Source: Escherichia phage EC.P2
DNA length: 64,000 nt
Direction: 5' to 3' (one strand)
Sequence record: PQ631072.1
Shown: positions 21,660-41,619 of the stretch, piece after piece
Layout: every line of letters starts with the position of its first letter
Numbering within the stretch: position 1 is the first letter of the stretch
Notes under the pieces: model-generated
What the model was told of the DNA's origin: nothing
The model's input: the letters and a program-made list of their open reading frames with translations, nothing else
Databases searched by the model: none
Program-made: the position numbers and the translations under genes

Positions 21660-22295
21660 ATGGGAATACCATTTGATTTAAAACTTGATGGTTCTAACGA
21701 TTTAGTAATGGTGGATGGTGATTTAACACTAACCACAACTAAAAGTGAAATTGCAGCACAGACGCTTGGAATAACACTTAGAACTTTCCGTGGAGAATGG
21801 TTCCTCAATTCTAATTTTGGGGTTCCATATCTGCAAGAGATTATTGGTGTTGCCAAGAAGAAAGAGATTGTTGATCGCATTTTCTTATCAACTATCGCAA
21901 GTAATGTTTATATAGATAATATCAATTCCTATACATCCTCTTATGATAGAGATGATAGGTATTACTCAATGAACGTTACTGTTACAGTTGGTGAACAAGT
22001 TGTTAGTGCACTGTTCAGTACGCAGCCGTCTGAAGAATATATCTATCCAGAAGCTGGTGATGATAATGCAGCAATCACTTGTGAAGCATTTGAAATTGTT
22101 GAATCTGCAAATAGACTCTATCGCTTTATTAACATTGTTGGTCTTCCGAAAGATACTTATTCTACTTGGTGGAATGAGTGGTCTAACGAGGCATTGCTTG
22201 AAAAATACCTTGTTAACGAAGCCAATAAAGGTCTTGCAACCAATTACAACTATGCTATAACAGCAACAATGGGAGCTACAAATAATAATGGCTGA
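21660..22295 (+). CDS. baseplate wedge protein (gp25/GPW-like)
   Basis: N-terminal region with the characteristic ...TLRTFRGEW...FGVPYLQE... pattern of GPW/gp25 family proteins. Confidence 0.6.
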   Translation: MGIPFDLKLDGSNDLVMVDGDLTLTTTKSEIAAQTLGITLRTFRGEWFLNSNFGVPYLQEIIGVAKKKEIVDRIFLSTIASNVYIDNINSYTSSYDRDDRYYSMNVTVTVGEQVVSALFSTQPSEEYIYPEAGDDNAAITCEAFEIVESANRLYRFINIVGLPKDTYSTWWNEWSNEALLEKYLVNEANKGLATNYNYAITATMGATNNNG

Positions 22296-22761
22296 TTTAA
22301 CTACAATCAAGGTGTCTGATCTACCTGTAACAACATCTGTTTCAGACACAGATTATTTTGTAACAGATCAATCAGGCATCACTAAGAAAACATCATTACG
22401 TGTTCTTCTTGCGGGTGCTGGTGTTACACGAAATCGTCTTTCTGCAAGGGGTACTGTCACAAATACCCTAGCTTTAGATATTAGCACGGCAGAGTATTTC
22501 TCTGCCACTTTATCTAGTCCAACTTGCAGTATTTCATTTAGTAATGTTCCAGTTACAACTAACATTGTTCAAAACTTTACCCTATCTCTACGTCAAGGTA
22601 GTGGAGCAAATAAAGTAACGTGGCCTCAATCTGTTAAATGGAGTTTTGGTCGCGCTCCTGTTTTGAGTTATAAACAGGGAGCTACAGATATTTTTGAATT
22701 TGTTAGTTATGATAATGGAGCTACCTGGATAGGTAGTTTAGTGATGGCAGGAGTGATTTAA
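22288..22761 (+). CDS. tail fibre adaptor/anchor protein (putative)
   Basis: N-terminus (..DLPVTTSVSDTDYFVTDQ..KKTSL) resembles N-terminus of the 27814 tailspike ORF. Confidence 0.45.
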   Translation: MADLTTIKVSDLPVTTSVSDTDYFVTDQSGITKKTSLRVLLAGAGVTRNRLSARGTVTNTLALDISTAEYFSATLSSPTCSISFSNVPVTTNIVQNFTLSLRQGSGANKVTWPQSVKWSFGRAPVLSYKQGATDIFEFVSYDNGATWIGSLVMAGVI

Positions 22762-25637
22762 TGTCAAGAATTAAGCACAGAATTGACAATGTTTTCCAAC
22801 TGATCGATGGACATATTCAGTTCTTAGATCGTAATACAGGTTTAACTGTAGATCCTACAGTGCAACACTATGTATTAAACCCACAAAACGTTCTAGCTAA
22901 TAACAGACACTTTATAAACTGGACTGCTCAAGAAGGGCAACCAAACGGGGATGCTACAACAGAAGGTCAATCCGTGCTTATTCTTGGTTGCGCTTATGCA
23001 TACCTGGCTTCCGGCGATACAAAGTATTTAGACTCTGCTAAAAAATATTGGCAAGCCTATATAGATTACTTCTTTGGTGGTCAGCCTATTCCAGACCCGC
23101 CAGCAAAATATCGCCCTAACTGGATTATTAACGGTAAAGAACCACGTCTTGCACACTATCCTCTTACAGATGATGGCTACCCTACACACGGAGGTTTTAA
23201 GGGTAGCTTAATGACGTGGACTAACGGTAGAACAGTTATTCCTCATGGTGCTCCTCATTGGGGAGAATACCTTGACAAAGCATGGTTTGCTTTTAATGGT
23301 AATCTAGGATGGAACTCTGTAAACGCTACAGTATATGCTGTTAATGCAGATGGAACAACAGATTGGTCTAAGAATGGAGATCAATGGGACGTTGATTGGA
23401 TCATTGATCGTCTAGGACGTAAAGTTGATTGGGATGGAAATATCTTAGAAGAAGGTTTTCCAACATCTCAATACGGAACAGTTCAACTAAAAAATACTTC
23501 TGTAAACGGTACATATAAATTTAACTACGCGACTTGTAACCCTGTTGAACACGGTGGTTATTTAATGGAGCGTAACACTATGTGGCATAACAGACCAGTT
23601 AACGTTCCGGTAGAAATGGGCTTTCAGGATAATGCGTCAGATGCTGAAACTTGGTGGTGTGATGCTAATTACCTGATGTACCAAATTACAGGAGAAAGAA
23701 AATATTGGCTATGCTGGCAGTCTTCACTGTTAGTGTGTCAAGATTACTCAAACATTGATATGTTTGATAAATTCTTCCGTAAGTCTACATATGCAACTAT
23801 CCCGTTTACAGATGGCATCTCTTACGATTATTCGTATCCATCTACAGCAATACCTAAATATTCAAGAGATACTTTAGGTTATATTGTTATTAGACAAGAT
23901 GTTGCTGCTCAAACAACATTAGAACAGCAAGCCATTTGGTTTAAAGTTGATCAGAACTCTAAGTTACGAGTTCAGTTTCAAGGTGTAGATGACGCAGGAC
24001 ATGGTATTCTTTTCCGTCCAGAGTTGGAACTAAGTAAGACCAAAGATGAAAATAACACAGTAACTTACCGCTGTGGCTTACCACTAGGTACAGCTAATAT
24101 GACAAGCATGGATATTCCACTATCCAGCTTTATGAGAAGTACCCCTCCAAGTGGTGGAACATATATTATCGCAGATCCGCGAATTATTGTTGACTGGGGT
24201 GGCAATACTGTGGTACAATTTAAGTATGTAACAGGTATTGCTGGAACTAATAATGACCAGATTGTTACTGCATCAATGGATACGGATGGTGGCATTACTG
24301 TTGGTTTTTGGTTAACTCCTACATCAAAAGCTAATGTTAAGTCTATTACATATAGAACATATGAAGATGACTTTAACATGACTATCACGGATGCTCAAGG
24401 TTGGAGATGGTGGGCTATGCTTCCTAAAACGCAAGGGGCATGGAGTACGAAGACTTTATCAGCTTCTGATTTTAAGTTAAGTGCTTACCAGCCTAATCAT
24501 CCAGAAACAGATCCTAAACCTTCAGCAATAAATCTTACTGCGGTAGATCAGGTAAATTTAGTTCTCGATACGGCTCCTGTCAATGGTTTAACAGGAACAA
24601 TAGATTTCTATTGTATTAACGATGTACCTGAAAGATATTCGTCATCTTCTGGTGATGATTATACCATGTACTTCCGTATCACTGTACAGGCTTCAAGTCC
24701 TCATACTGCTAAGTTAGGTGATTGTACTATTATTGACTATAAGTTAAATAGTCTTAATTACACACCAGGAATAATTCCATTCTCTAATATCAGTGACCCA
24801 AACACTGCATTGTATGATGGCTGGCGTGGTATTCCATACCCAGGATACCAATACCCTTCCTTATACTGTTTTGCAGGTAGAGATATTGATTGGACACGTT
24901 TAAACAACAGTATTGATTTCTTGTATGATGCTCAAATGTGGTTTTATAACACGTTTGATCCTGTGATGCCTGGGCCTATGGCACAAGCATATGTGTGGGA
25001 TCGTTGGGATGCAAGAAAATACGGTGAACCTAATACGTTTACAATGAAACACTGGAATGAAAAAGCGTGGGATGGTTATGAAGCTCGTGCATTCTACTGT
25101 GCTTGTCATGCTGTATACGAACTTGTACAAAGAGGAGAAACACCTCCTGAAAAACTAGTAACTGTTTGTAAAAATTGGATCAACTACCTTAAATGGTTCC
25201 AAGACAATAATGATGGAAGAACACCAACTATCTTTAATCCAGATGGTACAGTTCTTGCACCTATAGATGACTTTACTAGTCATATGTCTGCACTGTTTAT
25301 GGCGGGTTGTTCAATCATGGGCTTGGCAGGTTATGATTCACAAATTCCAAACATTGGTATTGTAGCAGACAGATGTTTTGATCTGATTCAGCAAAACTAT
25401 ATTGTGCTTTCCCCTAACCATCCGATGAATGGTTGCTGGAGTGTTGCACCGCGTCCAGATTCAGATAACGGAATGTTCTTTGGTTTCCATGCTGGAGAAC
25501 TATTACGTGGTTTTGGTTTATATGCCTTGTATCGTAAACTAAACCCTCAAAACGCTTTACCAATTTTGGATAACAGTAACATACCAACACTAACTGTTCT
25601 AACTATGAATGATATTAGTGTTGATGTAACCAAATAA
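22761..25637 (+). CDS. large tail fibre/tailspike protein (958 aa)
   Basis: ATG overlapping upstream stop; large Trp/Tyr/Asn-rich protein within receptor-binding block. Confidence 0.45.
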   Translation: MSRIKHRIDNVFQLIDGHIQFLDRNTGLTVDPTVQHYVLNPQNVLANNRHFINWTAQEGQPNGDATTEGQSVLILGCAYAYLASGDTKYLDSAKKYWQAYIDYFFGGQPIPDPPAKYRPNWIINGKEPRLAHYPLTDDGYPTHGGFKGSLMTWTNGRTVIPHGAPHWGEYLDKAWFAFNGNLGWNSVNATVYAVNADGTTDWSKNGDQWDVDWIIDRLGRKVDWDGNILEEGFPTSQYGTVQLKNTSVNGTYKFNYATCNPVEHGGYLMERNTMWHNRPVNVPVEMGFQDNASDAETWWCDANYLMYQITGERKYWLCWQSSLLVCQDYSNIDMFDKFFRKSTYATIPFTDGISYDYSYPSTAIPKYSRDTLGYIVIRQDVAAQTTLEQQAIWFKVDQNSKLRVQFQGVDDAGHGILFRPELELSKTKDENNTVTYRCGLPLGTANMTSMDIPLSSFMRSTPPSGGTYIIADPRIIVDWGGNTVVQFKYVTGIAGTNNDQIVTASMDTDGGITVGFWLTPTSKANVKSITYRTYEDDFNMTITDAQGWRWWAMLPKTQGAWSTKTLSASDFKLSAYQPNHPETDPKPSAINLTAVDQVNLVLDTAPVNGLTGTIDFYCINDVPERYSSSSGDDYTMYFRITVQASSPHTAKLGDCTIIDYKLNSLNYTPGIIPFSNISDPNTALYDGWRGIPYPGYQYPSLYCFAGRDIDWTRLNNSIDFLYDAQMWFYNTFDPVMPGPMAQAYVWDRWDARKYGEPNTFTMKHWNEKAWDGYEARAFYCACHAVYELVQRGETPPEKLVTVCKNWINYLKWFQDNNDGRTPTIFNPDGTVLAPIDDFTSHMSALFMAGCSIMGLAGYDSQIPNIGIVADRCFDLIQQNYIVLSPNHPMNGCWSVAPRPDSDNGMFFGFHAGELLRGFGLYALYRKLNPQNALPILDNSNIPTLTVLTMNDISVDVTK

Positions 25638-25645
25638 GGAAAATA

Positions 25646-27805
25646 ATGAAACAGGCTATTTTTACTGTAACTCGAAATACGAGAGTAAATGCCAGTTCAT
25701 TCAGCTATAAGACCGTCGATGGAACGGCGGTCGCTGGTAGAGATTATGTAGCTAAACAGGGAACAGTAACGTTCCCTTCTGATGCAGATTCTGCTACTGT
25801 AGTGGTTGATGTATATGAACGTCCGGCAAACTCTTTAGATCTTTATTTTACTCTTGAGATTACTAGCATAAGTCAAAATAACATGATGATCAATGAAGAA
25901 ATTCGTTGTGTTATTACGACTGATCAATCGAATACAACCCCGCTAACTTGGCCTGTTGTGAAGTCTAGAATGTTTGATCCTAAGTTTTGGACAATAGATT
26001 CTCAAGCAACAGAAAGTTGTTCTATTATCTCTAATGGTGATTCTTTCACAGCAAGAATGGTTAATAGGACAGTGGCTGGTCTTGCTGGGATTATTTGGTC
26101 AACTTACGATAAATATGATCACAAAGGATTAGGCTACCAAGAACATTCTGACTTAAGTAAAGAGAAACTTTGGTTTAAAATGGAACTTAGTCAAGGTGTT
26201 CCTGGATTAAAAGAAGAAAAATTAATACCATCCTTAACAGTGACACTGAAGGATGAAACAGTTCATTATGTATCTCTAAACTTTTATGCAGAAGAAGTTT
26301 CAGAAGATGGTAAGACAGCAACAATCAAATTAGATTTCTCAAACTTAAAATCGGGGCCAGAAAATGATATTGTTGTTGACACTACACAAATAGATAATAT
26401 GTTCTTCTCCTTGATCTCAACGAGGTATCAAGAAATTGAAGATATTATTCCTGTAGACAATGAGGATCTTTCCTTTAAGTTTACCATACTGGAGCCTGAT
26501 ACTGGTTACAGTATGATGAATATGGGTAATTTAAATGTTCCAGCACACACCATAAGAATGTGTACATCTTATGATGATATGTATAACCTGACCCCAGAGC
26601 GAGTTATTTCTAACACCTACAGATTAGGTTATAGGGATATGATTAACCACTATAATGGTATGTCACACTATTATCAGTTTAGTTGGGATGCTGGTTCTAA
26701 TAAATGGGCTTTGAATAGAACAGAATATTTAAACCCAGCAACAGAAGCATGGTTTGATAATTTCCACGCTAATGCAAAAGCTATGGGCTACACAGTAATG
26801 AATTCCTTAAGTTTTGAACTTATGAGTACAGTGTGTCCTGTAGAATGGGTACAACATGCTTGGAATGATGATCTTGCTGCTACAGGTTATGAGCCACCAA
26901 GTTATGTTTTATCTCCTTCAATTGATGAAGGGATGAATTATTTACAAGGTGTAATAAATAAGATAGCTTCTATATCCGCTGCTAATGATCTTCCAGTTAT
27001 TATTCAGGTTGGTGAACCGTGGTGGTGGTATAACACAGCTACCAATCTACCGTGTATTTATGATTATACAACCAAAGTTGCATTTAATAATGAAACTGGA
27101 TTGTATGCACAAGATGTTGGTACAGTTAAAAATTATAAAACTGGTACACCATATGATGAATATTATGCCTTCCTATCTAAAACATTAGGACTGCGTGTTG
27201 CTAAATTTGCAACAGATACCAGATTAGCATATCCTGGAGCTAAAGTTACATTGTTACCATTTGTGCCATCCATTTTGGGTAATGGTATGATGGAGTTTGT
27301 TAACTTCCCTAAAGATTATTATATCCCAGAAAACTTTGACTTTTATTGTTCAGAATGTTATGATTGGTTGTTGGAAGGTAAGATGGAAAGATCTTTTGAC
27401 GCTATCACAATACCTAATGAGCAACTAGGTTTTAGTTATGATAAGATACATTATCTTGCAGGGTTTGTTCCAGATGCAACTCTAGCACCATTATATGGCT
27501 TTGATCCTGAATCAAACTATAGAACATATTTGTGGAAAATGATTATAGGCAATATTGTATTGAATGACCAGAAGTTTGTTGGTTTATATCAATACATATG
27601 GGCTTACCCGCAAATAATGCATGATTCAATAACTGTTCTTAATTCAAAATCCCAAGTGTTTTATATGGGTAATGTGCCTTTGAATTGCTACTTGCAAGAT
27701 ATCACTCTTAAACAGGTAAATGTTGAGATTGCCACTATAAGTGGAATTACATTAGCCACTAAATCTGGAGAAGATTTAGTAACAACACAAAAATTTTATA
27801 TATAG
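25646..27805 (+). CDS. tail fibre/tailspike protein (719 aa)
   Basis: ORF with AAGGA RBS in receptor-binding block. Confidence 0.45.
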   Translation: MKQAIFTVTRNTRVNASSFSYKTVDGTAVAGRDYVAKQGTVTFPSDADSATVVVDVYERPANSLDLYFTLEITSISQNNMMINEEIRCVITTDQSNTTPLTWPVVKSRMFDPKFWTIDSQATESCSIISNGDSFTARMVNRTVAGLAGIIWSTYDKYDHKGLGYQEHSDLSKEKLWFKMELSQGVPGLKEEKLIPSLTVTLKDETVHYVSLNFYAEEVSEDGKTATIKLDFSNLKSGPENDIVVDTTQIDNMFFSLISTRYQEIEDIIPVDNEDLSFKFTILEPDTGYSMMNMGNLNVPAHTIRMCTSYDDMYNLTPERVISNTYRLGYRDMINHYNGMSHYYQFSWDAGSNKWALNRTEYLNPATEAWFDNFHANAKAMGYTVMNSLSFELMSTVCPVEWVQHAWNDDLAATGYEPPSYVLSPSIDEGMNYLQGVINKIASISAANDLPVIIQVGEPWWWYNTATNLPCIYDYTTKVAFNNETGLYAQDVGTVKNYKTGTPYDEYYAFLSKTLGLRVAKFATDTRLAYPGAKVTLLPFVPSILGNGMMEFVNFPKDYYIPENFDFYCSECYDWLLEGKMERSFDAITIPNEQLGFSYDKIHYLAGFVPDATLAPLYGFDPESNYRTYLWKMIIGNIVLNDQKFVGLYQYIWAYPQIMHDSITVLNSKSQVFYMGNVPLNCYLQDITLKQVNVEIATISGITLATKSGEDLVTTQKFYI

Positions 27806-27813
27806 GAGTAAAA

Positions 27814-29979
27814 ATGTCAACTACAATTACTAATTTACCCGAAACATCAAAAGTTAATGGTTCAGATTACCTGGTTTTAGATCAACCTGATAAAACTGTT
27901 AAAAGCACAGTTTCCAACTTTCTTACTGACACTGGGGTGGTTTTAGCCACCCAGTTGAAAGATACAGATGGAGCAGATTTAATACAATCCTCAAATGGTA
28001 ATACTGTTCAGGAAGAGTTGAATAACAATCTTCTTAATGATCGTGAACAGTGGCGTCGTAGTCTTGCTGAGGCAGGGTTAACCCTTGTCAACGGTAGCTT
28101 TGAAGAAGGGGCTACAGTAAACAATAAGACGGATGCTGTTTGGCATATTGCTGGTGGGCAGTGCTATACGTGGGATGGCGAGTTCCCTAAAACTGTTCCT
28201 GCCGGATCAACCCCAGGAACATCTGGTGGTATTGGTACTGGAGCGTGGTTGAGTGTTGGTGATGCAACATTAAGAACAGAATTGTTATCTGTTAATGGTG
28301 CTGTAATTCAATCTTTTAACAGTGTTTCAGACATGAAATCTTACAATATAACAGCAGGAAGAACATATCATACAAAAGGATATTGGGCAGAAGGTGATGG
28401 TGGTGGTGCTCTATATTATGTCACAACTCCGTCAGGAGACGAACCAAATGGTTATAGCGATCACAAGTCTGAAAATGGTTTATACATTCGTTTGTTGTCA
28501 GAACCTACTGATTTGAATCATGGGGTTAAGATTAGCGATATTTATGACCCTGAAACGGCAAGGTGGAATCGAAACGCGATCCAAACTATGTTGCGTGATA
28601 CCCGCTGGAGCTATACCGAATGTAAAGCACAAGGCGTAATTTATCTTTTGGGTAGTGTAAATGTAGGTAGAGATAATATCACATTCAAAATCAACAAAGG
28701 GTGCTCGCTTAAAGGTAGGTATTCAGATCCTAGTATTTCAACCCCAGATCAAGGTGGACACATGATAGGATTCGCTAAATTTTTCGACCCGGATAATGGT
28801 GATTTTATACCATGGAGAGATGGTGATACACGTATTAACCCTTATATAGAAAATGTACATGTTATTTTAGAAGGTGACGTATCTACTGAATTTAACGACA
28901 GCCATATAAACAAATATAACAATAACTGTATAGGGTTCCTGAAGGCTAAAAATTGCAGTATTCGTGGTACAGGTGGTTCATCATCCAGCGACCATCGAGC
29001 TTTTAACTTTGACGGCATAGACACTAATGCCCCCAATGGCTCTGAAAACAGAGGTGGTAGCATTAATTGTCATATTGATGTTGGTTATTCTTACAATTGT
29101 GTAGACAACCCTTGCATGATTGCTGCTGACCAATTCACCGCAAGTAGTTGCAGCATTAAAATCGGCGATGTGCGTAAAATGGTAGCAGGTGGTTATAACA
29201 GTCCGATTGTTATAAATGTATCCGGCATCTCGCATTTCGATATTAATATAGGTAGATTTTTGGTTGATGGTGGTGTCACACCAGCGTTAGTTGTAGCTCG
29301 TGGCGCTCGTTCAGTTAACGTAACAGGTGGTGTTATACAGGGCTGTACAATGGGTGTGTATTCTGTAGATACCCTGGATATTTCTTTAAACATTAAGGAA
29401 ATGTTTAATGTACCAATAGGTGTTGCTGTTGCAAATAACAGCACTATCGGCCCGAGAAGTATTATTATTCGTGGAATTAACGCAGTTAACTCCAGCTTTT
29501 CCGCTGCTTATGCGCATCAAGCATCTGCATTACCAGCAGCATATGTCGAAATAGCTGATAATAACTTCAGTGCCGCTTCTAGTTCATTTAAGTTTATTGG
29601 TGGTAAAACTTCAGGAAACACTCCTAAAAGACAAAACATTCATGACAATGTTACATCTTCTACGGGAGATGGTGGTCAAGATCTCAACTATTTGCCAGGC
29701 ACTCAGAAAAACATTATAGGAGGTAGTTCAACTACTAGTCTCAGTGTCAACTTTAAAGATGGCAACTGGAATTTCACAAAAGCGACCGTAGTTGCTGGGC
29801 AAGGTGGTGGGCGTGGTATTGCCACCATTGATCTACTTGCTAAAGGCGTTTCCAGCAACAGCATGGTTATAAGGGCTGGTGCTTATGATGTCACTGTAGC
29901 TATGCCTGCCAATGGAAATACGCTGACAGTTAGCGTAGTGTCGCCAAACTTCATTGATTATGTGACGCTTCATAATTAG
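27814..29979 (+). CDS. tailspike protein with conserved N-terminal anchor modules
   Basis: Shares N-terminal motif with 22288 ORF and a Y-x-W-x-G-x-x-P-K-x-VPA-x-STP-x-x-GGI motif with 36790 ORF. Confidence 0.55.
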   Translation: MSTTITNLPETSKVNGSDYLVLDQPDKTVKSTVSNFLTDTGVVLATQLKDTDGADLIQSSNGNTVQEELNNNLLNDREQWRRSLAEAGLTLVNGSFEEGATVNNKTDAVWHIAGGQCYTWDGEFPKTVPAGSTPGTSGGIGTGAWLSVGDATLRTELLSVNGAVIQSFNSVSDMKSYNITAGRTYHTKGYWAEGDGGGALYYVTTPSGDEPNGYSDHKSENGLYIRLLSEPTDLNHGVKISDIYDPETARWNRNAIQTMLRDTRWSYTECKAQGVIYLLGSVNVGRDNITFKINKGCSLKGRYSDPSISTPDQGGHMIGFAKFFDPDNGDFIPWRDGDTRINPYIENVHVILEGDVSTEFNDSHINKYNNNCIGFLKAKNCSIRGTGGSSSSDHRAFNFDGIDTNAPNGSENRGGSINCHIDVGYSYNCVDNPCMIAADQFTASSCSIKIGDVRKMVAGGYNSPIVINVSGISHFDINIGRFLVDGGVTPALVVARGARSVNVTGGVIQGCTMGVYSVDTLDISLNIKEMFNVPIGVAVANNSTIGPRSIIIRGINAVNSSFSAAYAHQASALPAAYVEIADNNFSAASSSFKFIGGKTSGNTPKRQNIHDNVTSSTGDGGQDLNYLPGTQKNIIGGSSTTSLSVNFKDGNWNFTKATVVAGQGGGRGIATIDLLAKGVSSNSMVIRAGAYDVTVAMPANGNTLTVSVVSPNFIDYVTLHN

Positions 29980-29985
29980 TAACAT

Positions 29986-30005
29986 CCCCGCTTTGGCGGG
30001 GTTCT
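29986..30005 (+). terminator. hairpin terminator (weak U-tract)
   Basis: CCCCGC-TTTG-GCGGGG hairpin after tailspike stop. Confidence 0.4.
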
Positions 30006-30061
30006 ATAGACCTCGGAGAATTAGCTGTATATCGTGATTTAAAAAGTAATGAGAACGCACC

Positions 30062-30307
30062 ATGAGAAAATTTTTAATAGGTATGTTTTGTACATATCCT
30101 GATAATAAAGTCAGTTCTACTAAAGTTTGGAATGCTATTGGTATGATTGTTATGTCCAGTATGTTTATTTATTTGGGAATTGATAAAGAAATTCCTGAAT
30201 GGATGGGCTGGGCTTTTGTTTTTATGATCACACCATCCAGACTAATGAAGAATTTAATAGATTTACGTTGGGGCAGATCACCTGCCCCTGATAAGGAGGA
30301 TAACTAA
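30062..30307 (+). CDS. small membrane protein (two predicted TM helices)
   Basis: 81 aa with two hydrophobic segments and charged C-terminus. Confidence 0.4.
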   Translation: MRKFLIGMFCTYPDNKVSSTKVWNAIGMIVMSSMFIYLGIDKEIPEWMGWAFVFMITPSRLMKNLIDLRWGRSPAPDKEDN

Positions 30308-33432: not shown

Positions 33433-33984
33433 ATGAAAAAAGATGTTATTTACACTGGCTTTGAACTATATCAACCAGAATTGACAGAAGAAAATGTCAT
33501 CTATCTTTCAATAGGTGCTGGTTTTCTTAAAGATAAAGATGGTAATGATTGGTACGAAATTCAGAAATATTTATCTAAAAATTACCCTGATGCCTATTTC
33601 TTAACTCTAGATCACAACAATGTAGTTGTTGCAGCTACGAAAGATGTTTCTACATATTTTCCCGCTGGTCTTACTGTTCTTGTAACATACAATGTTCCAG
33701 ATAAGATAGAAGAAGAAAGCAATCTAGGATCGTGGAGATATGACAATGGTAAGTTTGTTTCTCATAATGGGTTTGCAATAGAAGATGCCAACCTTAAAAT
33801 GGAAAAAGAATTAACTTGGGCCACAAATCAAATATCTGCAATTCAAGATTTAGAGGAATTACAAGGTTTATCTGAAGAACAAAAAGATTGGTTAGGAAAA
33901 GTTAAACTATATCGTGCAACACTGATTCAAATTAACGTTGAAGATGCACCTAATATAACTTGGCCTACAAGACCTAAGAAATAG
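33433..33984 (+). CDS. tail fibre assembly/chaperone protein (putative)
   Basis: Small ORF directly after fibre gene; positional inference. Confidence 0.35.
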   Translation: MKKDVIYTGFELYQPELTEENVIYLSIGAGFLKDKDGNDWYEIQKYLSKNYPDAYFLTLDHNNVVVAATKDVSTYFPAGLTVLVTYNVPDKIEEESNLGSWRYDNGKFVSHNGFAIEDANLKMEKELTWATNQISAIQDLEELQGLSEEQKDWLGKVKLYRATLIQINVEDAPNITWPTRPKK

Positions 33985-33993
33985 GGGTAATGT

Positions 33994-34335
33994 ATGGAGC
34001 TAACAGAAGTATGGGATATCGCTAAAGAGGCGATTATCCCTCTTATTGGTGTAATCTGGGTGGTCTTCAAACAGAAGATAGATGATATAGCAAGTGATTT
34101 GGATAAAATGGAAGACAAATACCGTGAACTAGAAAAGAAGTTGGTGTTTGTTGAATCCACTTATGCTACCAAAGCAGAACTTGCTCAAATGCTTAACCAG
34201 ATCAACTCTACATTAATGGCAAATAATACTGCCTTAGAACAGAAAATTGAAAAAATAATGGATTTAAAAAATGCTCCTGTTCAATTAATGCTAGAGGAGA
34301 TTACGAAGCGCACACAAAGTAAGGACAAAAATTAA
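33994..34335 (+). CDS. hypothetical coiled-coil protein
   Basis: 113 aa, charged heptad-like sequence. Confidence 0.4.
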   Translation: MELTEVWDIAKEAIIPLIGVIWVVFKQKIDDIASDLDKMEDKYRELEKKLVFVESTYATKAELAQMLNQINSTLMANNTALEQKIEKIMDLKNAPVQLMLEEITKRTQSKDKN

Positions 34336-36749
34336 TGGCGAATTTTCCAACATATCCTGCTACGACACTAGAACAAGGTGTTGATCTGGTTATATTCTCG
34401 TCTAACCAGATGCATGATGTTATTAACGGGGATGCTACAGCAACTGTAGAAACCGAAACAGGTTTAATACCTACACTGCGTAAAGCACTTGTTGATAACT
34501 TCTTCTTTAAGAGTCCTGTTGCTTGGTCAGCAGGATCAACTGAAACTGTATTTAACCAGTTACGTTATTTTGAAAACGGCATCTTGAGTGGGTACTACTA
34601 TGCCCCATCTGCCACTACTGCGAACCCTGTACCTATGCAGGGTACACCTGTAGGAGACAGTAACTGGACTCTGTATGCTCTTAAAACTGAACAGTTAGCT
34701 TCAGATGTGTATCCTTGGTATTTTAAAGGTGCTACAGGGTATGAGACAGAAATCAGTCCTCCTTATATCTTTGATAATGCTATTGTCACCATTAACGGTG
34801 TAATTCAGATTCAGGGTGAAGCATTTACTATCAAAGATAGTAAAATTATTCTGGCAGAACCATTAGGTTTAGATCCGTCTACTGGTCTACCTAACAAATT
34901 GTTTGCTTTTATTGGTAAAACAACAGCCTCTACTTCTTACGTAGAGAAAAACCTTTTGTCATCTACCACTGGTGCAGCAATGGTTGGTCTTCCATCTGGA
35001 GGCAACCTGTTACAAGCTCAATACTTTGTAACGCCTGAGCAGTTTGGTGCAATTGGTGATGGAGTTACCGATGATACTCAAGCAATTCTAAAAACCATTA
35101 CTTTCGCTAACACGAATAACATTCAAGTACGTGCAGATAAGAATTATAGATTCACAAGCTCAATTGCTATGTCTGGTATTCGTTGGTATGGTGGTACATT
35201 CACTGGTAACGGTGGAACAATGATTTCTACTGTGTCCTGTTGGATTGAAAACGTTCGCTTTGAAAAATGTTATGTTAAGATGTTAGGTGGTGATTGCCGA
35301 TTCTATCGTAATATCTTCTCCAACGCAACATCTACAGCAGCATTCTTAATGCAAGCAATGACAAGTGAAGGTACGTTGGACTTCAGTTACAACGAAATGT
35401 ATGGTTGTAAATATGCGATCCTGCAACAAGGTACTGGAGAAGTAATGACCTATGGGCGTTACTCTAACAACTATATTCACGATATTAAAGGTGATGCTAT
35501 TGAACTTAACGTAGTTCAAAGACACTACACTGAAGGTTTGATCATCGAGAATAACCACATTGCTAACGTAGATGCTTCTGGACAAGGTGCAAACTGGGGT
35601 ATTGGTATTGGTGTAGCAGGTAGTGGCCCATATGGTGTTGATGCTCCTGATTCACAATATGTACGTAACTTCAGTATCGTTGGAAATAGAGTTTACAATT
35701 GCCGTCAATGTCTACACGTTGAAATGGGTAAAAACTTCACAATACGTGATAACGAAGTTTATCCTAACACAGCAGTTTCAACAGGTACAGGTTTAACTAC
35801 TTGTGGTGTTGCATTATACGGATGCCAAGACTTTGAAGTTGATGGTTTAACTGGTTATCTGCTTAATGATCCGTCTGTTTCAACACGCATGGTCTTTATT
35901 GACTGGGGTGTTAACGGTGGAAGATATGCGGGGCCACCAATTAACTTTACAATTAAGAATTTGGATATTCCAGAATCTTCGATTGAGATTGCAACGGCTG
36001 GATCAGACGCCTGGGAAAACTCTACAATTGTTAGTAACATCAATTGTAATGATTTTAAATGGCGTGGGCTACCATCTAGCTCTACTTTTAATAATATTCG
36101 TTGCCGTAGTATTGACTTTATTGGTCAACACGGAAGCGGAGAAGGAAGTGGTGGCGGTTTCTATACTCGCAGCCAATTCACTTATATGAAGTGGGTAGGA
36201 TGTACAGCACTTAGCGGAGATGAAACAACAGTTTCTTTTGCTAAAATCTACACGGATCGTTGCGATCAGGTTGGAAATAACTTTGGTGTTCCAACTGCTG
36301 TTGATGGTACAGGTCATCGTGGGCCAGTCTTAACCACTATTTCTGAACAATATTTTACAGATTATGATGAATTCCCAGGTGGGCGTGACTTCCCTACTGG
36401 AACAGTTATTCATTGTGCAAGCGGTAAAAAACACGTTGTTACAGTAGGTGGTGCTTTCTTTAGTAATAATGAGAAAATAAAAGCAACTGTTACAGGTCAA
36501 ACCTATCTACAGTCTAATGCTTTAAACTGGGCTAGTAATGGCTACGCTAAAGCGGCAGGTACTAAGATTGTTATTCCAGGTGCAGGAGCAAATGGTGGCG
36601 ATCTTGTGACAACTATAGCACGTGCTACGTATGTGACAAATAGTTTGTACACAATAGATATTGCAGATCCAATTGTAACACCTACAGCAGAGAATACACA
36701 AATTAAAGCTCTGAACCCTGTTACTTTTGTTACTGTCAATAATGCTTAA
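34335..36749 (+). CDS. tailspike with pectate-lyase-like beta-helix (putative depolymerase)
   Basis: Contains FGAIGDGVTDDTQAI, the hallmark motif of pectate-lyase-3-type beta-helix domains found in phage depolymerases. Confidence 0.6.
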   Translation: MANFPTYPATTLEQGVDLVIFSSNQMHDVINGDATATVETETGLIPTLRKALVDNFFFKSPVAWSAGSTETVFNQLRYFENGILSGYYYAPSATTANPVPMQGTPVGDSNWTLYALKTEQLASDVYPWYFKGATGYETEISPPYIFDNAIVTINGVIQIQGEAFTIKDSKIILAEPLGLDPSTGLPNKLFAFIGKTTASTSYVEKNLLSSTTGAAMVGLPSGGNLLQAQYFVTPEQFGAIGDGVTDDTQAILKTITFANTNNIQVRADKNYRFTSSIAMSGIRWYGGTFTGNGGTMISTVSCWIENVRFEKCYVKMLGGDCRFYRNIFSNATSTAAFLMQAMTSEGTLDFSYNEMYGCKYAILQQGTGEVMTYGRYSNNYIHDIKGDAIELNVVQRHYTEGLIIENNHIANVDASGQGANWGIGIGVAGSGPYGVDAPDSQYVRNFSIVGNRVYNCRQCLHVEMGKNFTIRDNEVYPNTAVSTGTGLTTCGVALYGCQDFEVDGLTGYLLNDPSVSTRMVFIDWGVNGGRYAGPPINFTIKNLDIPESSIEIATAGSDAWENSTIVSNINCNDFKWRGLPSSSTFNNIRCRSIDFIGQHGSGEGSGGGFYTRSQFTYMKWVGCTALSGDETTVSFAKIYTDRCDQVGNNFGVPTAVDGTGHRGPVLTTISEQYFTDYDEFPGGRDFPTGTVIHCASGKKHVVTVGGAFFSNNEKIKATVTGQTYLQSNALNWASNGYAKAAGTKIVIPGAGANGGDLVTTIARATYVTNSLYTIDIADPIVTPTAENTQIKALNPVTFVTVNNA

Positions 36750-36753
36750 TTAA

Positions 36754-36775
36754 AAGGGGCGAAAGCCCCTTTATA
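36754..36775 (+). terminator. hairpin terminator (GAAA loop)
   Basis: AAGGGGC-GAAA-GCCCCTT hairpin; same 18-mer occurs in minus sense at 47620-47637. Confidence 0.5.
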
Positions 36776-36789
36776 AAAGGAGTAGTAAA

Positions 36790-38760
36790 GTGATTTTAAC
36801 ACGTCCAAATAGTGCCATTGCAGACATGGTAGAGTCTCGCTATAGAAAGCGTAGAAGTTTTGCAAGTGGTTTTACCTTAAGAGATGCTCGTGAAGCATTG
36901 CTCTTTGAAGCTGACGGTAACTACTATCAGTGGAAAGGTTCTCTACCTAAAGTTGTACCTGCTAACTCTACTCCTACATCCACTGGAGGGATTTCAGATA
37001 CAGCTTGGAAAAATGTGGGTAATGCAGATGACATTGCTCAAATAGAATCAGAATTAGATGCTATTGAAGCTGAAATTGAAGATCTTAGAGAATCCATCCC
37101 AGAAGCTGGTAAATCAGCTTACCAGATTGCCGTAGACAATGGTTTCCAAGGTACTGAGACACAGTGGTTGGCTTCTTTAAAAGGTGATCCAGGCGCTCCA
37201 TTAAAGCTATTAGGGACACTATCTAATACCAACCAATTACCTACAAGTGGAAACAATGCAGGGGATGCATGGATTGTAGGCGAGAATATGTATGCTTGGG
37301 ATGGTACTGCTTGGAGAAAAGTAAACTCACAGGGGCCAGAAGGTAAGTCTGCTTATGAAGTATGGCTTGCAGCAGGAAACCAAGGTACAGAACTAGACTA
37401 TCTTGCTTCAATTAAAGGTGATAAAGGGGAGCCTGGCCCAGAGGGGCCACAAGGTGTGCCAGGTAACAATGCTAATGGTTTTGATTACCAAGGCGCAGCT
37501 AATTCCGTTTCAGATCTTCCTTCTGCATCTCATGGAAACACATCTCAAGCATGGAGTGTTGGTACATATCTATACGTGTCAAACGGTGTAGAATGGATCA
37601 ATATGGGCGCTATAGTGGGGCCAAAAGGAGATAAAGGCGACAAAGGAGATAAGGGTAACACTGGTGATTCAGCTTATCAAGTCTGGTTAAATGCTGGTAA
37701 CGTTGGTACTATTGACGAATATATTGCCTCTCTGAAAGGAGAAAAAGGTGATAAGGGAGACAAGGGTGATCAAGGTGCACAGGGTATACAAGGCTTGACG
37801 GGGCCAACTGGTGCAGGGTTGACCATTATTGACATTCTGACTAGCACTTCTGAACTGCCACAAACTGGGGAAGATGGTGATGGTTATCTGATCAATAGTG
37901 AACTTTGGGTCTGGTTGCAAGGAGCCACAGAGTGGACAAATGTTGGTCGTTTAGCTGGTACTCCAATCACTGCAAAAGGACACGTTGCGTCTGCAAGTGC
38001 GCTTCCTCCTACAGCCAATTACGGTGATGCTTATCTGACGGAAGATACAGGTCATCTTTACATTTACACCTATAATGAACAAACTCAAACTGCTGAATAT
38101 GTAGATATGGGTAGTTTGAAAGGTGATAAGGGTGAAAAAGGTGAGAAAGGTGACGCTGGTACTAACGGTACAGACGGTGCAACTTGGATTGTTAAAACAA
38201 CAGATCCAATCTCTAGTGATGGTAAACAAGGTGATTATGCCTTTAATATCTCCACTGGCGAGGTGTTCTTAAAAACATCTGCAACTGTCTGGACTTCTCA
38301 AGGTACACTACCTAGTATCACAGATGCACCTAGTGATGGTAAGACTTATGCTCGTAAAGATGGGGCATGGGAAGAACTCACTAATTCTGTAGATGGTCAA
38401 GATATAGTTCCAACAAAAGTAACAACTAATTTTATAGAGGTTACAGCATATACCAACAATTCTGTTACAGGGGACTGGACACCTCCAGGAACACATAACA
38501 TGAATGTGTTGAATCTTACTGGTAACGCTACTATAAAAGCATGGCCTGGTGTCGAAGATAGTACAAAACCTAAACCATTCTCTGCAATAGTTTATCTTAT
38601 CCAAGATGCCACTGGAGGTCGTACTGTTACTTTAGATCCATCTTACAAAGTAATTGGTTCCAGTGATATTAATACAGATCCTAACGGAGTAACAATACTA
38701 CAACTAACATATTGTGGTGTTGGCGATTACGTGGATGCTATTGTTGCTAAACGCACATAA
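36790..38760 (+). CDS. collagen-like repeat tail fibre protein
   Basis: Multiple Gly-X-Y tracts (GDKGEPGPEGPQGVPG, GPKGDKGDKGDKGNTGD and others) and three tandem SAY...GTE...LAS(L/I)KG(D/E) modules. Confidence 0.65.
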   Translation: MILTRPNSAIADMVESRYRKRRSFASGFTLRDAREALLFEADGNYYQWKGSLPKVVPANSTPTSTGGISDTAWKNVGNADDIAQIESELDAIEAEIEDLRESIPEAGKSAYQIAVDNGFQGTETQWLASLKGDPGAPLKLLGTLSNTNQLPTSGNNAGDAWIVGENMYAWDGTAWRKVNSQGPEGKSAYEVWLAAGNQGTELDYLASIKGDKGEPGPEGPQGVPGNNANGFDYQGAANSVSDLPSASHGNTSQAWSVGTYLYVSNGVEWINMGAIVGPKGDKGDKGDKGNTGDSAYQVWLNAGNVGTIDEYIASLKGEKGDKGDKGDQGAQGIQGLTGPTGAGLTIIDILTSTSELPQTGEDGDGYLINSELWVWLQGATEWTNVGRLAGTPITAKGHVASASALPPTANYGDAYLTEDTGHLYIYTYNEQTQTAEYVDMGSLKGDKGEKGEKGDAGTNGTDGATWIVKTTDPISSDGKQGDYAFNISTGEVFLKTSATVWTSQGTLPSITDAPSDGKTYARKDGAWEELTNSVDGQDIVPTKVTTNFIEVTAYTNNSVTGDWTPPGTHNMNVLNLTGNATIKAWPGVEDSTKPKPFSAIVYLIQDATGGRTVTLDPSYKVIGSSDINTDPNGVTILQLTYCGVGDYVDAIVAKRT

Positions 38761-38763
38761 TCA

Positions 38764-38788
38764 AAGCCCCTTCGGGGGCTTATTATTT
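38764..38788 (+). terminator. rho-independent terminator (TTCG loop)
   Basis: AAGCCCC-TTCG-GGGGCTT hairpin followed by T-rich tract; same 18-mer in minus sense at 60865-60882. Confidence 0.6.
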
Positions 38789-38799
38789 AAGGAGATTAA

Positions 38800-41619
38800 A
38801 TGTATCCTATTCCTTTATTTATGTCAACAACATCAGCTTCAGTAGTAACAGCTACATCTATAACCACTTCCTCTATTGGTATTGCAATAGTTGGTAGTAA
38901 AAAGCAACTGACATACACAGTTTCACCGGAAGATGGTGCGTTATTTGATATAGCTTTTTCATCTTCAGATAATACCAAAATGGTTATAGATAATAACGGT
39001 ATGATGGAGTTTGTTGCTGAAGGCGGTTTTGATGCAATAATGACAGCTAAAAATAATTTAGGTGCTGTCTTAACTGATCAATCTGGTGGCTATGCTTCAG
39101 AATTAAGTGTGTACACTGAAAGTCTGTCTGCTATGGATGCAGGAACTACTCAACAATTGGTTGCTACAATCAGTCCAGAAGGTGCTAAAGACCTTCCAGA
39201 CATGGTAATTACGTACACCACAACAGATCCAGAAGTAGCTACTGTAAGCCCTACAGGATTAATAACTGCTCTTAAAGATGGCAGTTGCCGTATAGGTTGT
39301 ACTGCAACTTATCAAGGAACAGTGGTGGCCTCTGATAGTTCTTATTTAGGTGTTAATGCTATTCCTGTTATTTCTAATGTAACAGCCGTGGCAAACAGCT
39401 ATGGAGACATTCGTGTTGCTTGGGATGTAGCTGATCCGCTAGATGGTGATACTTATACTGTAGAAGTATTAGATTTAAGTAATAACAGTGTCCAGTGGAC
39501 TACAACAACCACGAATACTTACGCCTACTTTGATATCTCTGACTCTATTCCTCTTTATGGGTTTGCTCCAACATACCTTAAAATTAGCGTTAAGAGCACC
39601 AAAGCAGCAGCCGTTATCTTTAATAACTCAATAGCTACAGATGATTCATTCATTAAAGAAGTTATTGTCTTTGCTGGACAAGATAACGTAAATGCACACT
39701 TTACAGAACTATCTGGTGCAAATAAAGCAGCAATGAGTAGCACAACAACCCGTAACGCATATGCTACGCAACGTGGTTTAGCAAATGCTGAAGTTCTTCC
39801 GTTAAATACAGCTTCTGGATCATCAGCAGCAGATAAATATGCTGACGATAAAGCTGGAACAGGTACACCAGACAACTACTGGTATGATCTGGATAACACA
39901 GCAGATGGGCCATGCTTAACTAATTTTATCACTAAAGTCACACCTTATGCAAGTAAGGTTAAAGCAATTATTTGGGGACAAGGTGAAAATGATGCTGTAT
40001 CAGCATCTTCAACTGTTGCAGGTAGGTACAGTAACACTACACGTTACCATGATGCTACGATAGCCATCTTTGATAAGATGCGTACAATAGTTCCTGCTTC
40101 TCAAGCAAAAATTGTTTGGCAGATCCTAGGACGTTCTTATCTATATGGTGTAGAAGTTAATGGTGTAGATTGGCAGAAATACAGAAATGTACAAAGAACC
40201 ATCTCTACAGCACGTGACGATGTTATCATTGGTTCTTGGGTAGATGGTGCTGAACGTTACAGTGGCTATGCTTATGAAGAAGGTATTGATGGTCGTATCC
40301 ATTATATTTCTTCTGTATACCAGACAGCAGCTACAAAACTTGCTAAATCAGCAGCAGACGGTACAGACCTAACATCAACGTCACCTGTTTGGGTTGATAT
40401 GGCTGTTCCAACTGGAGCAACAGCTACTTCCCAGTCTAATCAAGATACAATTTTAGCATGGGATGCTCAAGGTTATAGTAAACACTACTTCCGTAATATT
40501 AACGTCTTAACAGCATCTGTATTAACTGAACAAACGCTTAATACGAACAGTTATACGTTTACCTATGCAGATCAAGTAGAACAATATGGTTTTGCAGCAG
40601 GTACTACGATATTTGATGTTGCATATTATGACGAAGCAAATGATGTGTTATCTCCTTTAGTACGTTTTAATGTTAGCGTTACAGCAGGAAAAGTAGAAGA
40701 TAAACCTGTCGTGATGGACTATGATTTGACACAAGAAACTCTTCCATCAGATGTTAAGGTTAATGGTGGGAACTCTTTTGCTCGTGCTTCTGGAGATACA
40801 CTTGTAGCCACTAACACCTTGGTTGCTCCGTTGGAGTATGTTGGCACTACCCCTGTAGGTAGACGTGTAACAGCTAACACAGCTACACAAATTTTTGTCA
40901 ACAACGCCTTAACAAGCGCAAGCCCGTGGGTAAAGACCAACTTAACTGTTGCATCTTCATCTGATAAATCTCCGGCTGGAACTACTGCTAATGTATTCAA
41001 ATTAACTCCGACTACAACTTCTGGTAGTCATATCTTAACTGCAACATATACTAACGCGTACAACATATCTGCCGGACGTAACTGGTCTGCCTCTGTTTTC
41101 TTGAAAGCGAACGGGATTACTAAGGCCAAACTAAGATTAAAAGCAGGGACTGAAGTTAATGAAGGTACTTTTGATTTAGCAGCAGGTACATTCACAGGAA
41201 GTGAAGCTAATATTATATCTATGGGCAACGGTTGGTATCGTGCTATTCTGCATAAAACAGGAATAGCCAAACAGTCCTCCATAAGTTTTGAAATAATTGC
41301 CTTGGATGCAACTGGTGCGGAGATTTTCGCTGGAGATGGTACTAGTAACCTTGCAGTTTGGTTGCCACAGCTTGAAGGTGCTTCTACAGGAGAAACATCA
41401 AAAGCTGGATCGCCTTATGTCTGCACATATCCTGGAAATTTAGGAGGAGTATCCTTCACTATACCAAGGAACGGACATACTGGTGTGGATGTTTACTATT
41501 CCAACGGAGACGTTGTTCGTGACGTATTCTCTGGTACGGCATCTACTTGGACAATAAACTACTCCAGCTTGTACGATTGGGGATCAGTCTTTATTACAGG
41601 TTTGAAATATTACGACTAA
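38800..41619 (+). CDS. tail fibre protein with Ig-like domains and SGNH/sialate-O-acetylesterase-like domain
   Basis: N-terminal Big_2-like repeats; FAGQDNVN and IWGQGENDA motifs about 110 aa apart resemble the GQSN / W-QGE-D esterase signature. Confidence 0.5.
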   Translation: MYPIPLFMSTTSASVVTATSITTSSIGIAIVGSKKQLTYTVSPEDGALFDIAFSSSDNTKMVIDNNGMMEFVAEGGFDAIMTAKNNLGAVLTDQSGGYASELSVYTESLSAMDAGTTQQLVATISPEGAKDLPDMVITYTTTDPEVATVSPTGLITALKDGSCRIGCTATYQGTVVASDSSYLGVNAIPVISNVTAVANSYGDIRVAWDVADPLDGDTYTVEVLDLSNNSVQWTTTTTNTYAYFDISDSIPLYGFAPTYLKISVKSTKAAAVIFNNSIATDDSFIKEVIVFAGQDNVNAHFTELSGANKAAMSSTTTRNAYATQRGLANAEVLPLNTASGSSAADKYADDKAGTGTPDNYWYDLDNTADGPCLTNFITKVTPYASKVKAIIWGQGENDAVSASSTVAGRYSNTTRYHDATIAIFDKMRTIVPASQAKIVWQILGRSYLYGVEVNGVDWQKYRNVQRTISTARDDVIIGSWVDGAERYSGYAYEEGIDGRIHYISSVYQTAATKLAKSAADGTDLTSTSPVWVDMAVPTGATATSQSNQDTILAWDAQGYSKHYFRNINVLTASVLTEQTLNTNSYTFTYADQVEQYGFAAGTTIFDVAYYDEANDVLSPLVRFNVSVTAGKVEDKPVVMDYDLTQETLPSDVKVNGGNSFARASGDTLVATNTLVAPLEYVGTTPVGRRVTANTATQIFVNNALTSASPWVKTNLTVASSSDKSPAGTTANVFKLTPTTTSGSHILTATYTNAYNISAGRNWSASVFLKANGITKAKLRLKAGTEVNEGTFDLAAGTFTGSEANIISMGNGWYRAILHKTGIAKQSSISFEIIALDATGAEIFAGDGTSNLAVWLPQLEGASTGETSKAGSPYVCTYPGNLGGVSFTIPRNGHTGVDVYYSNGDVVRDVFSGTASTWTINYSSLYDWGSVFITGLKYYD

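Follow-up and report, generated by a model that had tools for sequence, protein, structure and literature searches.

The tail-fibre and tailspike cluster of a phi92-like coliphage, with a swapped tip on one tailspike

The cluster and its genes

The window is the whole 64,000-nucleotide stretch of Escherichia phage EC.P2 that was analysed (PQ631072.1). Judged by its sequence, it derives from a Justusliebigvirus, i.e., a phi92-like Escherichia coli myophage. Over about 90% of its length, the region from 22288 to 41619 is 96–99% identical at the nucleotide level to PHB05, PaulScherrer and other phages, and its orthologues pair gene for gene with phi92 gp140–gp153. The gene order, running from the hub, spike and sheath initiator genes into gp140–gp153, agrees by coordinates with phi92, PHB05 and PaulScherrer. 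The locus is the known "Swiss army knife" cluster of fibre and tailspike genes; what is new is confined to the swapped tip of one tailspike, and everything else in the finding repeats published knowledge of the genus. Homologies, module boundaries, synteny and the crossover position are observations of the present analysis.

The ORFs and coordinates given by a preliminary description of this DNA are correct. Its count of at least eight large fibre or spike proteins in about 19 kb was overstated, as the region holds 13 ORFs and only six exceed 650 aa. Three of these six are fibres or spikes, namely a 721-aa beta-helix spike, an 804-aa colanidase spike and a 656-aa collagen-like fibre. The remaining three resemble enzymes: a 958-aa protein with an (alpha/alpha)6 glycosidase fold, a 719-aa protein of the N4-sheath type with a TIM barrel, and a 939-aa protein with Ig-like and esterase-like domains. 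Two small fibre proteins (157 and 326 aa), two baseplate wedge subunits, one fibre chaperone and two small ORFs make up the rest. Coordinates are collected in Table 1. A promoter scan of the locus gave counts not above those of shuffled sequence, and an Rfam scan returned tRNAs only.

Table 1. Genes and modules of the cluster, in window coordinates.
Feature	Position	Strand	Basis or remark
gp140 homologue, mini-fibre, 157 aa	22288..22761	+	phrog_9017 tail fibre
gp140 anchor module A	aa 1-47, 22288-22428	+	common to the 721-aa protein
gp140 C-terminal tip domain, widespread	aa 55-157, 22450-22758	+	5968 representative clusters at E<=1e-3
gp141 homologue, conserved tail-associated, 958 aa	22761..25637	+	(alpha/alpha)6 glycosidase-like barrel, beta-sandwich inserts; no fibre
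gp142 homologue, 719 aa	25646..27805	+	Calx-beta; N-terminal domain and TIM barrel of phage N4 non-contractile sheath type
gp143-position tailspike, 721 aa	27814..29979	+	anchor A, PF18668, beta-helix receptor-binding part
gp143 anchor A	aa 1-54, 27814-27975	+	
gp143 PF18668	aa 92-150, 28087-28263	+	
gp143 exchangeable beta-helix receptor-binding part	aa ~145/170-721, to 29976	+	
gp144 homologue, 81 aa, membrane protein by relatives' annotation	30062..30307	+	synteny with phi92, PHB05
gp145 homologue, baseplate wedge subunit, 495 aa	30307..31794	+	Pfam Baseplate_J, phrog_6
gp146 homologue, second baseplate wedge subunit, 209 aa	31797..32426	+	synteny; PMC13450770
gp147 homologue, short tail fibre (phi92 fibre III), 326 aa	32440..33420	+	phrog_4465; PMC13450770
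gp148 homologue, tail fibre assembly chaperone, 183 aa	33433..33984	+	Pfam Caudo_TAP, phrog_136
gp149 homologue, 113 aa	33994..34335	+	synteny only
gp150 homologue, colanic-acid-degrading tailspike, 804 aa	34335..36749	+	PDB 6e0v, phrog_6117
gp151 homologue, collagen-like fibre, 656 aa	36790..38760	+	Pfam PF18668, Collagen
gp151 PF18668 at extreme N-terminus, then repeat/collagen shaft	aa 11-77, 36820-37020	+	
gp151 probable tip domain	aa ~554-654, 38449-38751	+	
gp152/gp153 homologue, intact, 939 aa	38800..41619	+	Ig-like Big_2 (Pfam), weak SASA-type carbohydrate esterase region, unknown C-terminal domain

Several assignments draw on solved structures. Residues 180–804 of gp150 match PDB 6e0v, the solved structure of phi92 gp150, with 1417 bits. 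Its N-terminus (aa 12–126) matches PDB 9cuy_g, which is the phiTE fibre (PMC11972413); by this match, the N-terminal attachment domain of gp150 is of the phiTE long-fibre type. The gp142 homologue contains PF03160, PF23844 and PF23845 and matches N4 gp64 (E 4e-27) and gp65 in PDB 9lc0; the role of this N4 pair is described in PMC13434306. The SASA match of gp152 (E 0.008) is below the cut-off. The gp147 short fibre is homologous to Mu GpS (PMC8594841).

Two shared N-terminal modules

The 157-aa and 721-aa ORFs, i.e., gp140 and gp143, had been described as sharing an N-terminal motif, and pairwise alignment and HMM searches bear this out. BLASTP aligns gp140 residues 9–46 with gp143 residues 5–42 (37% identity over 38 aa, E 7.4e-4). 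An HMM of the gp140-family N-terminus, run against 363 six-frame segments of the window, matched only the 721-aa ORF (E 5.6e-4; next best 3.8), and a combined-family HMM found no third carrier in the window. The module spans about 45–50 residues at the extreme N-terminus of both proteins. Both N-termini match phrog_7760 and phrog_23437 in the same register, and both match three fibre proteins encoded together in Proteus phage Mydo, again at the N-terminus.

A second motif, said to be common to gp143 and gp151, is likewise real (BLASTP E 7.8e-10). Both proteins contain PF18668 (Tail_spike_N, the TSP1/Gp66 N-terminal domain), with 74.0 bits in gp143 and 75.2 bits in gp151 (E ~1e-20 each), against a curated gathering threshold of 25 bits. 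Only the spelling of the motif was at fault, being one x short: Y.W.G..PK.VPA.STP...GGI matches both ORFs exactly, and the version with two x's matches neither. The PDB relatives of PF18668 are CBA120 TSP1, TSP3 and TSP4 and G7C gp63.1.

Could these similarities be accidents of chance or composition, without common ancestry? The first motif is short, its identity is modest, and its pairwise E value of only 7e-4 comes from a small search space. Against this stand the unique HMM match, the extreme N-terminal position in both proteins, the shared PHROG register and the same three Mydo partners for both anchors. In addition, P0020, a 222-aa relative of gp140, unites anchor, PF18668 and gp140-type tip in one protein, and the second motif scores three-fold above the Pfam threshold in both carriers. 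Chance similarity is thus rejected, the HMM, PHROG, Mydo, P0020 and Pfam tests leaving it a negligible probability.

Common ancestry does not give the two modules the same role. Residues 1–54 of gp143 are 94–100% identical across the genus, while the distal parts are unrelated. No other part is shared by every gp143 allele, the phi92 endosialidase included, so this segment must carry the virion attachment. We propose that the ~50-residue module of gp140 and gp143 is the virion-docking anchor; the 222-aa rV5 gp43, a counterpart of gp140, has been detected in virions (PMC3606486). PF18668, on the other hand, fits poorly as a virion adaptor. It is absent from phi92 gp143, lies downstream of the anchor in the 721-aa protein, travels with the tailspike cassettes of unrelated podophages and prophages, and is the crossover point in cassette exchange. 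In gp143 and gp151 it is more likely a common tailspike neck. To summarize, the preliminary description is partly confirmed as observation, the two motifs holding and the count of eight failing, and partly supported as interpretation, since "shared adaptor" suits the first motif and not the second.

A third module probably links gp140 to gp151. The gp151 C-terminus matches gp140-type tip domains (P0197, E 1.5e-7), and hhalign of the gp140 and gp151 tips gives E 0.002. Compared directly, the two C-termini show no BLASTP match and no PHROG family in common, and the gp140-family HMM scores E 2.6. As the support consists of transitive matches and hhalign, we regard the two tips as probably, and distantly, related. 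The module make-up is then anchor and tip in gp140; anchor, neck and enzyme in gp143; neck, shaft and tip in gp151; and anchor, neck and tip in the rV5-type gp43 and P0020. These combinations might represent a fixed docking code, with gp140 and gp143 docked at paralogous sites on the pair of gp145 molecules in each wedge and gp151 next to them. We hold such a code to be unlikely; if true, it would identify the unassigned fibre II of phi92 and provide a rule for engineering extra spikes.

The gp143 tailspike and its exchanged tip

Compared with its relatives, the region varies in a single stretch, from window 28264/28303 to 29999/30032, which is distal gp143. Breakpoints between gp143 alleles fall at aa 42–62 or at about 150–163. 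Against P0021, an E. coli prophage tailspike from the strain of GCA_051340565.1, identity jumps from ~45% to ~94% at aa 145, and distal gp143 is 94% identical to that protein. Among 50,697 phage records none matches the corresponding DNA, and the exact 721-aa protein has no record.

The AF2 model of gp143 (pLDDT 84) places a right-handed beta-helix body between the neck domain and a C-terminal beta-sandwich. The top Foldseek matches are CBA120 TSP4/3/2, HK620 and Sf6, and these, like K2-2 TSP, are matched with probability 1.0. As modelled, gp143 is a parallel beta-helix tailspike. In other phages, its distal domain follows N-terminal domains of at least five different kinds. We suggest that the conserved C-terminal end of PF18668 (GAWLSVGDATLR) acts as a recombination joint, where distal receptor-binding cassettes would be swapped with other phages and prophages, and that the present cassette came from the tailspike lineage of a temperate E. 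coli podophage. Its predicted target is most likely O-antigen, a prediction drawn solely from the prophage context.

One new natural cassette exchange is thereby added, its likely donor lineage being that of a prophage tailspike. For host-range engineering, it is useful to know where an exchangeable cassette can start: after the anchor, which ends near residue 54, or at the second joint, where PF18668 ends (near residue 145). Among well-studied coliphages, the host range of phi92-like phages is the broadest, and these phages are therapy candidates.

Proposed composition and arrangement of the adsorption apparatus

Multivalent adsorption and a broad host range are the published description of the phi92 group (Schwarzer 2012, as relayed in PMC8594841, PMC11984140, PMC11990801 and PMC13450770). 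In the BASEL collection, the broadest lysis host range belongs to this genus (PMC8594841, PMC11990801). Several fibre types together on the virion, and a broad host range, are reported from cryo-EM and plating for phi92 and Bas60–62 (PMC13450770, PMC8594841, PMC11990801). In phi92, cryo-EM shows three co-expressed fibre sets, with gp145 as the docking platform of fibres I and III; the proteins assigned to fibres I and III are gp143, on gp145, and gp147, respectively (PMC13450770). The present locus, a cluster of tail-fibre and baseplate-periphery genes, very probably encodes this same apparatus. Virion location, co-expression, substrates and host range are inferred from phi92 and its relatives.

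Each virion would display, across its six baseplate wedges, several co-expressed proteins that interact with receptors. The gp147 short fibre would serve irreversible binding, and the gp150 colanidase spike, the gp151 collagen-like fibre and the gp140 mini-fibre are expected beside it. The conserved enzyme-like gp141, gp142 and gp152 and one exchangeable gp143 beta-helix tailspike would complete the set. The gp152 component would be dispensable, because gp152 is disrupted in phi92.

Several of the eight candidates might lie outside the adsorption apparatus, as enzymes that are soluble or dispensable or as structural proteins of the baseplate, which would leave a much smaller arsenal. The fold of gp141 is globular, a glycosidase rather than a fibre, and the protein is ~45% identical across very different hosts, which speaks against host-specific recognition. 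The gp142 homologue resembles a sheath subunit, gp152 is broken in phi92, and none of the three is among the fibre-like proteins in the AF3 screen of phi92 (PMC13450770). However, fusions of gp141 with gp142 or with a baseplate wedge domain (Tail_P2_I) are found in other phages and indicate that it is tail-attached. In N4, the receptor-binding protein is gp65, to which gp142 is related (PMC13434306), rV5 homologues have been found in virions (PMC3606486), and the genes are part of the late tail operon, in which stop codons overlap the next start or lie close to it. We retain all three proteins in the proposed apparatus and consider the reduced arsenal improbable.

The preliminary description also proposed that the apparatus is branched. 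In low-resolution cryo-EM of phi92, the base of fibre I is joined by fibre II (PMC13450770), which lends the proposal weak support; searches for the docking domain itself gave nothing. That is, no T4 gp10-like (XD) domain was found in the large proteins of the locus by Pfam, PHROG and PDB sequence searches, a sequence-level test that could have missed a relative at the level of fold.

In a truly branched complex of the Ackermannviridae/G7C type, one anchored protein would bear docking domains, and others, notably gp151 through PF18668, would hang from it. PF18668 is indeed the tandem-domain (TD) module of CBA120 TSP1–4 and G7C gp63.1, and the N-terminal tandem domains of CBA120 TSP1 and TSP3 bind the XD3 domains of TSP4 and TSP2 (PMC11414711). 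In gp151 it starts at residue 11, only 10 residues from the N-terminus, and in the 721-aa protein it follows the anchor. Yet phi92 gp143 lacks PF18668 wholly, and gp150, gp147 and gp140/gp143 have their own, differing N-terminal attachment domains. Moreover, PMC11414711 sets the Ackermannviridae complex against phi92, whose fibres are all said to protrude from the baseplate, and the AF3 model of phi92 gp151 misfits the fibre II density (PMC13450770). A branched architecture is thus weakly supported. XD/TD branching is not adopted as the main architecture and is kept as a minority reading of distinctly low probability. The at least four different N-terminal attachment types among the fibres suggest that the fibres dock mostly at separate sites.

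Among known systems, phi92 itself (Justusliebigvirus, Stephanstirmvirinae) shares the gene order, the orthologues and ~98% nucleotide identity outside gp143. It also has the colanidase gp150, the short fibre and its chaperone, the wedge proteins and the conserved 54-residue gp143 anchor. It differs in distal gp143, an endosialidase with a C-terminal chaperone, where the present phage has a beta-helix tailspike preceded by PF18668. In addition, its last gene is split into gp152 and gp153, whereas the gene is intact here (939 aa). PHB05 (vB_EcoM_PHB05) and PaulScherrer (Bas60) show 97–99% nucleotide identity across the whole locus; in both, gp143 contains PF18668 and the last gene is intact (939 aa). 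Their distal gp143 cassettes are unlike the present one, the protein being 857 aa in PHB05 and 624 aa in PaulScherrer. In PHB05 there are also extra small ORFs and a duplicated gp144 segment.

Further afield, the anchor module also heads several co-encoded fibre proteins in the Vequintavirinae (rV5, Mydo), where the gp150-type N-terminus and gp151-type tip domains are combined in new ways, and where rV5 gp43 is a longer form of gp140. The numbers and sizes of their fibre genes differ, and the anchor is only ~35–45% identical. CBA120 TSP1–4 and G7C gp63.1/gp66 share several co-expressed tailspikes, exchangeable distal enzymes and the PF18668 module. They differ in having XD docking domains, which were not detected here, and unrelated anchors, whereas fibres of the phi92 type are described as joined mainly to the baseplate wedge.

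A phi92-like tail-fibre locus

A nucleotide search matched 22288-41619 to 134 phage records, in 49 of which a single match spans at least 80% of the query. The best of the matches listed are 96–99% identical to it; PHB05, PaulScherrer (Bas60), KKE7M and alia are examples, and every one is a phi92-like coliphage from the genus Justusliebigvirus or Phapecoctavirus. The ORF order is, gene for gene, that of phi92 gp140 to gp153, whose gene numbers are used here, and likewise that of the annotated PHB05 and PaulScherrer loci. The rest of the window agrees: the tRNA array, head genes, sheath, tube, tape measure, hub, spike and sheath initiator come in that order, and the coding strand changes after 41619.

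The preliminary description put the large fibre or spike proteins at eight or more. This is too high, as the 13 ORFs of the region include three large fibres or spikes and two small fibres (table). One late operon is proposed to encode all the proteins, most of which would be mounted on the six baseplate wedges. G+C-rich hairpins occupy three short intergenic gaps, the last of them between the converging plus-strand and minus-strand genes; possible roles are those of terminators or attenuators inside the operon.

Features of the window and classes of the encoded proteins
Feature	Coordinates	Remark
tRNA array	77-2592	14-15 genes
tRNA	77-155	called by Rfam only
tRNA-Met	2201-2276	called by ARAGORN only
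gp140, 157 aa	from 22288	small fibre
gp140 C-terminal (tip) domain	22450-22758	
gp141, 958 aa		large enzyme-like protein
gp142, 719 aa		large enzyme-like protein
gp143 position, 721 aa	from 27814	large beta-helix spike
Sole divergent stretch, against phi92	27965 to 30067	
Sole divergent stretch, against PaulScherrer and PHB05	28264/28303 to 29999/30032	
Distal gp143 DNA	28246-29979	
gp144-region segment	30032-30253	two copies in PHB05
gp147, 326 aa		small fibre
gp150, 804 aa		large colanidase spike
Hairpin	36752-36774	after gp150
gp151, 656 aa	from 36790	large collagen-like fibre
gp151 C-terminus	38449-38751	
Hairpin	38764-38781	after gp151
gp152, 939 aa	38800-41619	large enzyme-like protein
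Gaps in phi92	39389-39608 and 40683-41622	
Hairpin	41623-41646	after gp152
Other ORFs		two wedge subunits, one chaperone, two small ORFs

gp150 corresponds to the phi92 colanidase, whose structure is solved (6e0v). At the N-terminus, residues 12–126 of gp150 match the phiTE long tail fibre, which has been modelled on the baseplate of that phage (PMC11972413). gp147 is a short fibre, and gp148 is its chaperone. gp142 shares its TIM barrel and N-terminal domain with gp64 and gp65, the non-contractile sheath subunits of phage N4. gp65 is the receptor-binding protein of N4 (PMC13434306), and the NGR glycan is reported to be used by both N4 and Justusliebigvirus phages (PMC11990801), which the likeness of gp142 to gp65 fits. 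In gp152, an Ig-like domain is accompanied by a weak match to SASA esterases. The gp152 ORF is intact here and in PHB05 and PaulScherrer; in phi92 the same gene is broken by gaps into gp152 and gp153.

In other phages, a gp141-like sequence is fused to a gp142-like one in P0320 (1557 aa) or, in P0303 and P0317 (1097 aa), to a P2 gpI-type baseplate wedge domain; all three proteins are relatives of window 22761-27805. These fusions point to a joint function of gp141 and gp142 and to a position of both directly on the wedge.

The anchor of gp140 and gp143

An N-terminal motif had been noted in gp140 and the 721-aa protein, and it is borne out. By BLASTP, the extreme N-termini align with 37% identity over 38 residues (E 7.4e-4). 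An HMM of gp140-family N-termini has the 721-aa ORF as its sole match among 363 six-frame window segments (E 5.6e-4; runner-up 3.8). Both N-termini match phrog_7760 and phrog_23437 in register, and both anchors match the N-termini of the same three co-encoded fibre proteins of Proteus phage Mydo (Vequintavirinae). The aligned family follows the pattern I-x-φ-x-[DEN]-L ... D-φ-φ-V-x-[DE]-Q ... T-K-K. The family HMM found no third carrier among the window ORFs. In the Mydo locus (9699-16883 and 21755-23515, Mydo_259 included), Mydo_247, Mydo_249 and Mydo_251 all have the anchor module at the N-terminus.

Across all gp143 alleles of the group, the phi92 endosialidase included, the anchor (residues 1–54) is 94–100% identical, and outside it phi92 gp143 has no similarity to the 721-aa protein. 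No other part is common to all the alleles, from which we infer that the anchor must carry docking. The gp140 anchor is paralogous, so gp140 probably docks at an equivalent site.

Beyond its anchor, gp140 consists of a C-terminal domain of ~100 residues, of a type found at the ends of a great many phage fibre proteins. The family comprises 5968 representative clusters at E ≤ 1e-3, some with tandem copies, and the gp151 C-terminus seems to be distantly related to it. A metagenomic relative of 222 aa, P0020, carries the anchor, the Pfam domain PF18668 and the gp140 tip on a single chain; rV5 gp43, found in rV5 virions, is reported to have the same size and tailspike-like N-terminus (PMC3606486). 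Mydo_259 joins a gp150-type N-terminus to two tip domains of gp151 type; the same modules thus recur in other combinations across the subfamily. It is possible, though we think it improbable, that the three-module pattern of gp140, gp143 and gp151 is a docking code; if true, it would identify phi92 fibre II.

The PF18668 neck and the exchangeable spike

The second motif noted earlier, in the 721-aa and 656-aa proteins, is indeed present and corresponds to PF18668 (Tail_spike_N). The printed pattern was one x short; with three x before GGI it retrieves exactly these two ORFs. Both score at three times the curated Pfam threshold, and they match each other by BLASTP (E 7.8e-10). In the 721-aa protein, a linker and PF18668 make up the neck, residues 75–165. 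PF18668 also occurs in tailspikes of Kayfunavirus, Przondovirus, Ackermannviridae, G7C and many prophages.

The distal body, residues 170–721, is modelled as a parallel beta-helix tailspike (pLDDT 84), with CBA120 TSP4, TSP3 and TSP2, K2-2 TSP, HK620 and Sf6 as nearest folds (Foldseek). Variation is limited to distal gp143, as the divergent stretches against PaulScherrer, PHB05 and phi92 fall only there. A megablast search of 50,697 phage records gave no match to the distal DNA, and the exact 721-aa protein is not on record. The closest relative of the distal part, 94% identical, is P0021, an 848-aa E. coli prophage tailspike (prophage locus 8001-10547). Its prophage is podovirus-like and adjoins ppx/ppk, and the tailspike gene is directly upstream of lysis genes. 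Identity to P0021 rises from ~45% to ~94% at GAWLSVGDATLR (aa 145), the conserved end of PF18668. At least five types of N-terminal partner precede the distal domain in its homologues: PF18668, PF09008, PF18454, PF12571 and PF26208.

Breaks in gp143 similarity thus fall preferentially at two joints, past the anchor and where PF18668 ends. Together with the limits of variation, the identity jump and the varied partners, these joints fit PF18668 being a neck module and recombination handle, not the adaptor by which gp143 is attached to the virion. The earlier idea of shared adaptors fits the anchor, common to all alleles, and is a poor fit for PF18668, which lies at the cassette joint. Because the donor lineage is a prophage tailspike, the glycan target of the spike here is probably O-antigen. 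In PHB05, the duplicated segment (11258-11479 and 11848-12069 of its locus) lies downstream of the gp143 allele and is probably a scar of cassette exchange.

Attachment sites and known systems

On the C-terminal domain of phi92 gp145, cryo-EM places fibre I (assigned gp143) at the upper end and fibre III (gp147) at the lower, with fibre II joining the base of fibre I (PMC13450770). gp150, gp147 and gp151 have three N-terminal types, all other than the gp140/gp143 anchor, which argues for several separate attachment sites and against a single branched stalk. The role proposed for the conserved enzymes is to act on common glycans, e.g., colanic acid and NGR, and that of the exchangeable gp143 spike is to extend the range by a strain-specific one. 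The broad or polyvalent host range also proposed is on record for the genus (PMC8594841, PMC11990801, PMC11984140) and may extend to EC.P2.

The branched complexes of Ackermannviridae and G7C have PF18668 in common with the locus, but a sequence search of the locus proteins detected no gp10-like docking domain, and the locus is therefore not placed in that class. On every testable feature it is a member of the phi92-type apparatus. In essence, the idea of a multi-spike arsenal is the "Swiss army knife" model already in the literature. The features noted are genuine, their number was partly overstated, and an explanation already existed. Our additions are small, namely a map of the three modules in gp140, gp143 and gp151, the precise positions of the crossovers, a new allele of distal gp143, and the enzyme-type fold of gp141 with its fusions.
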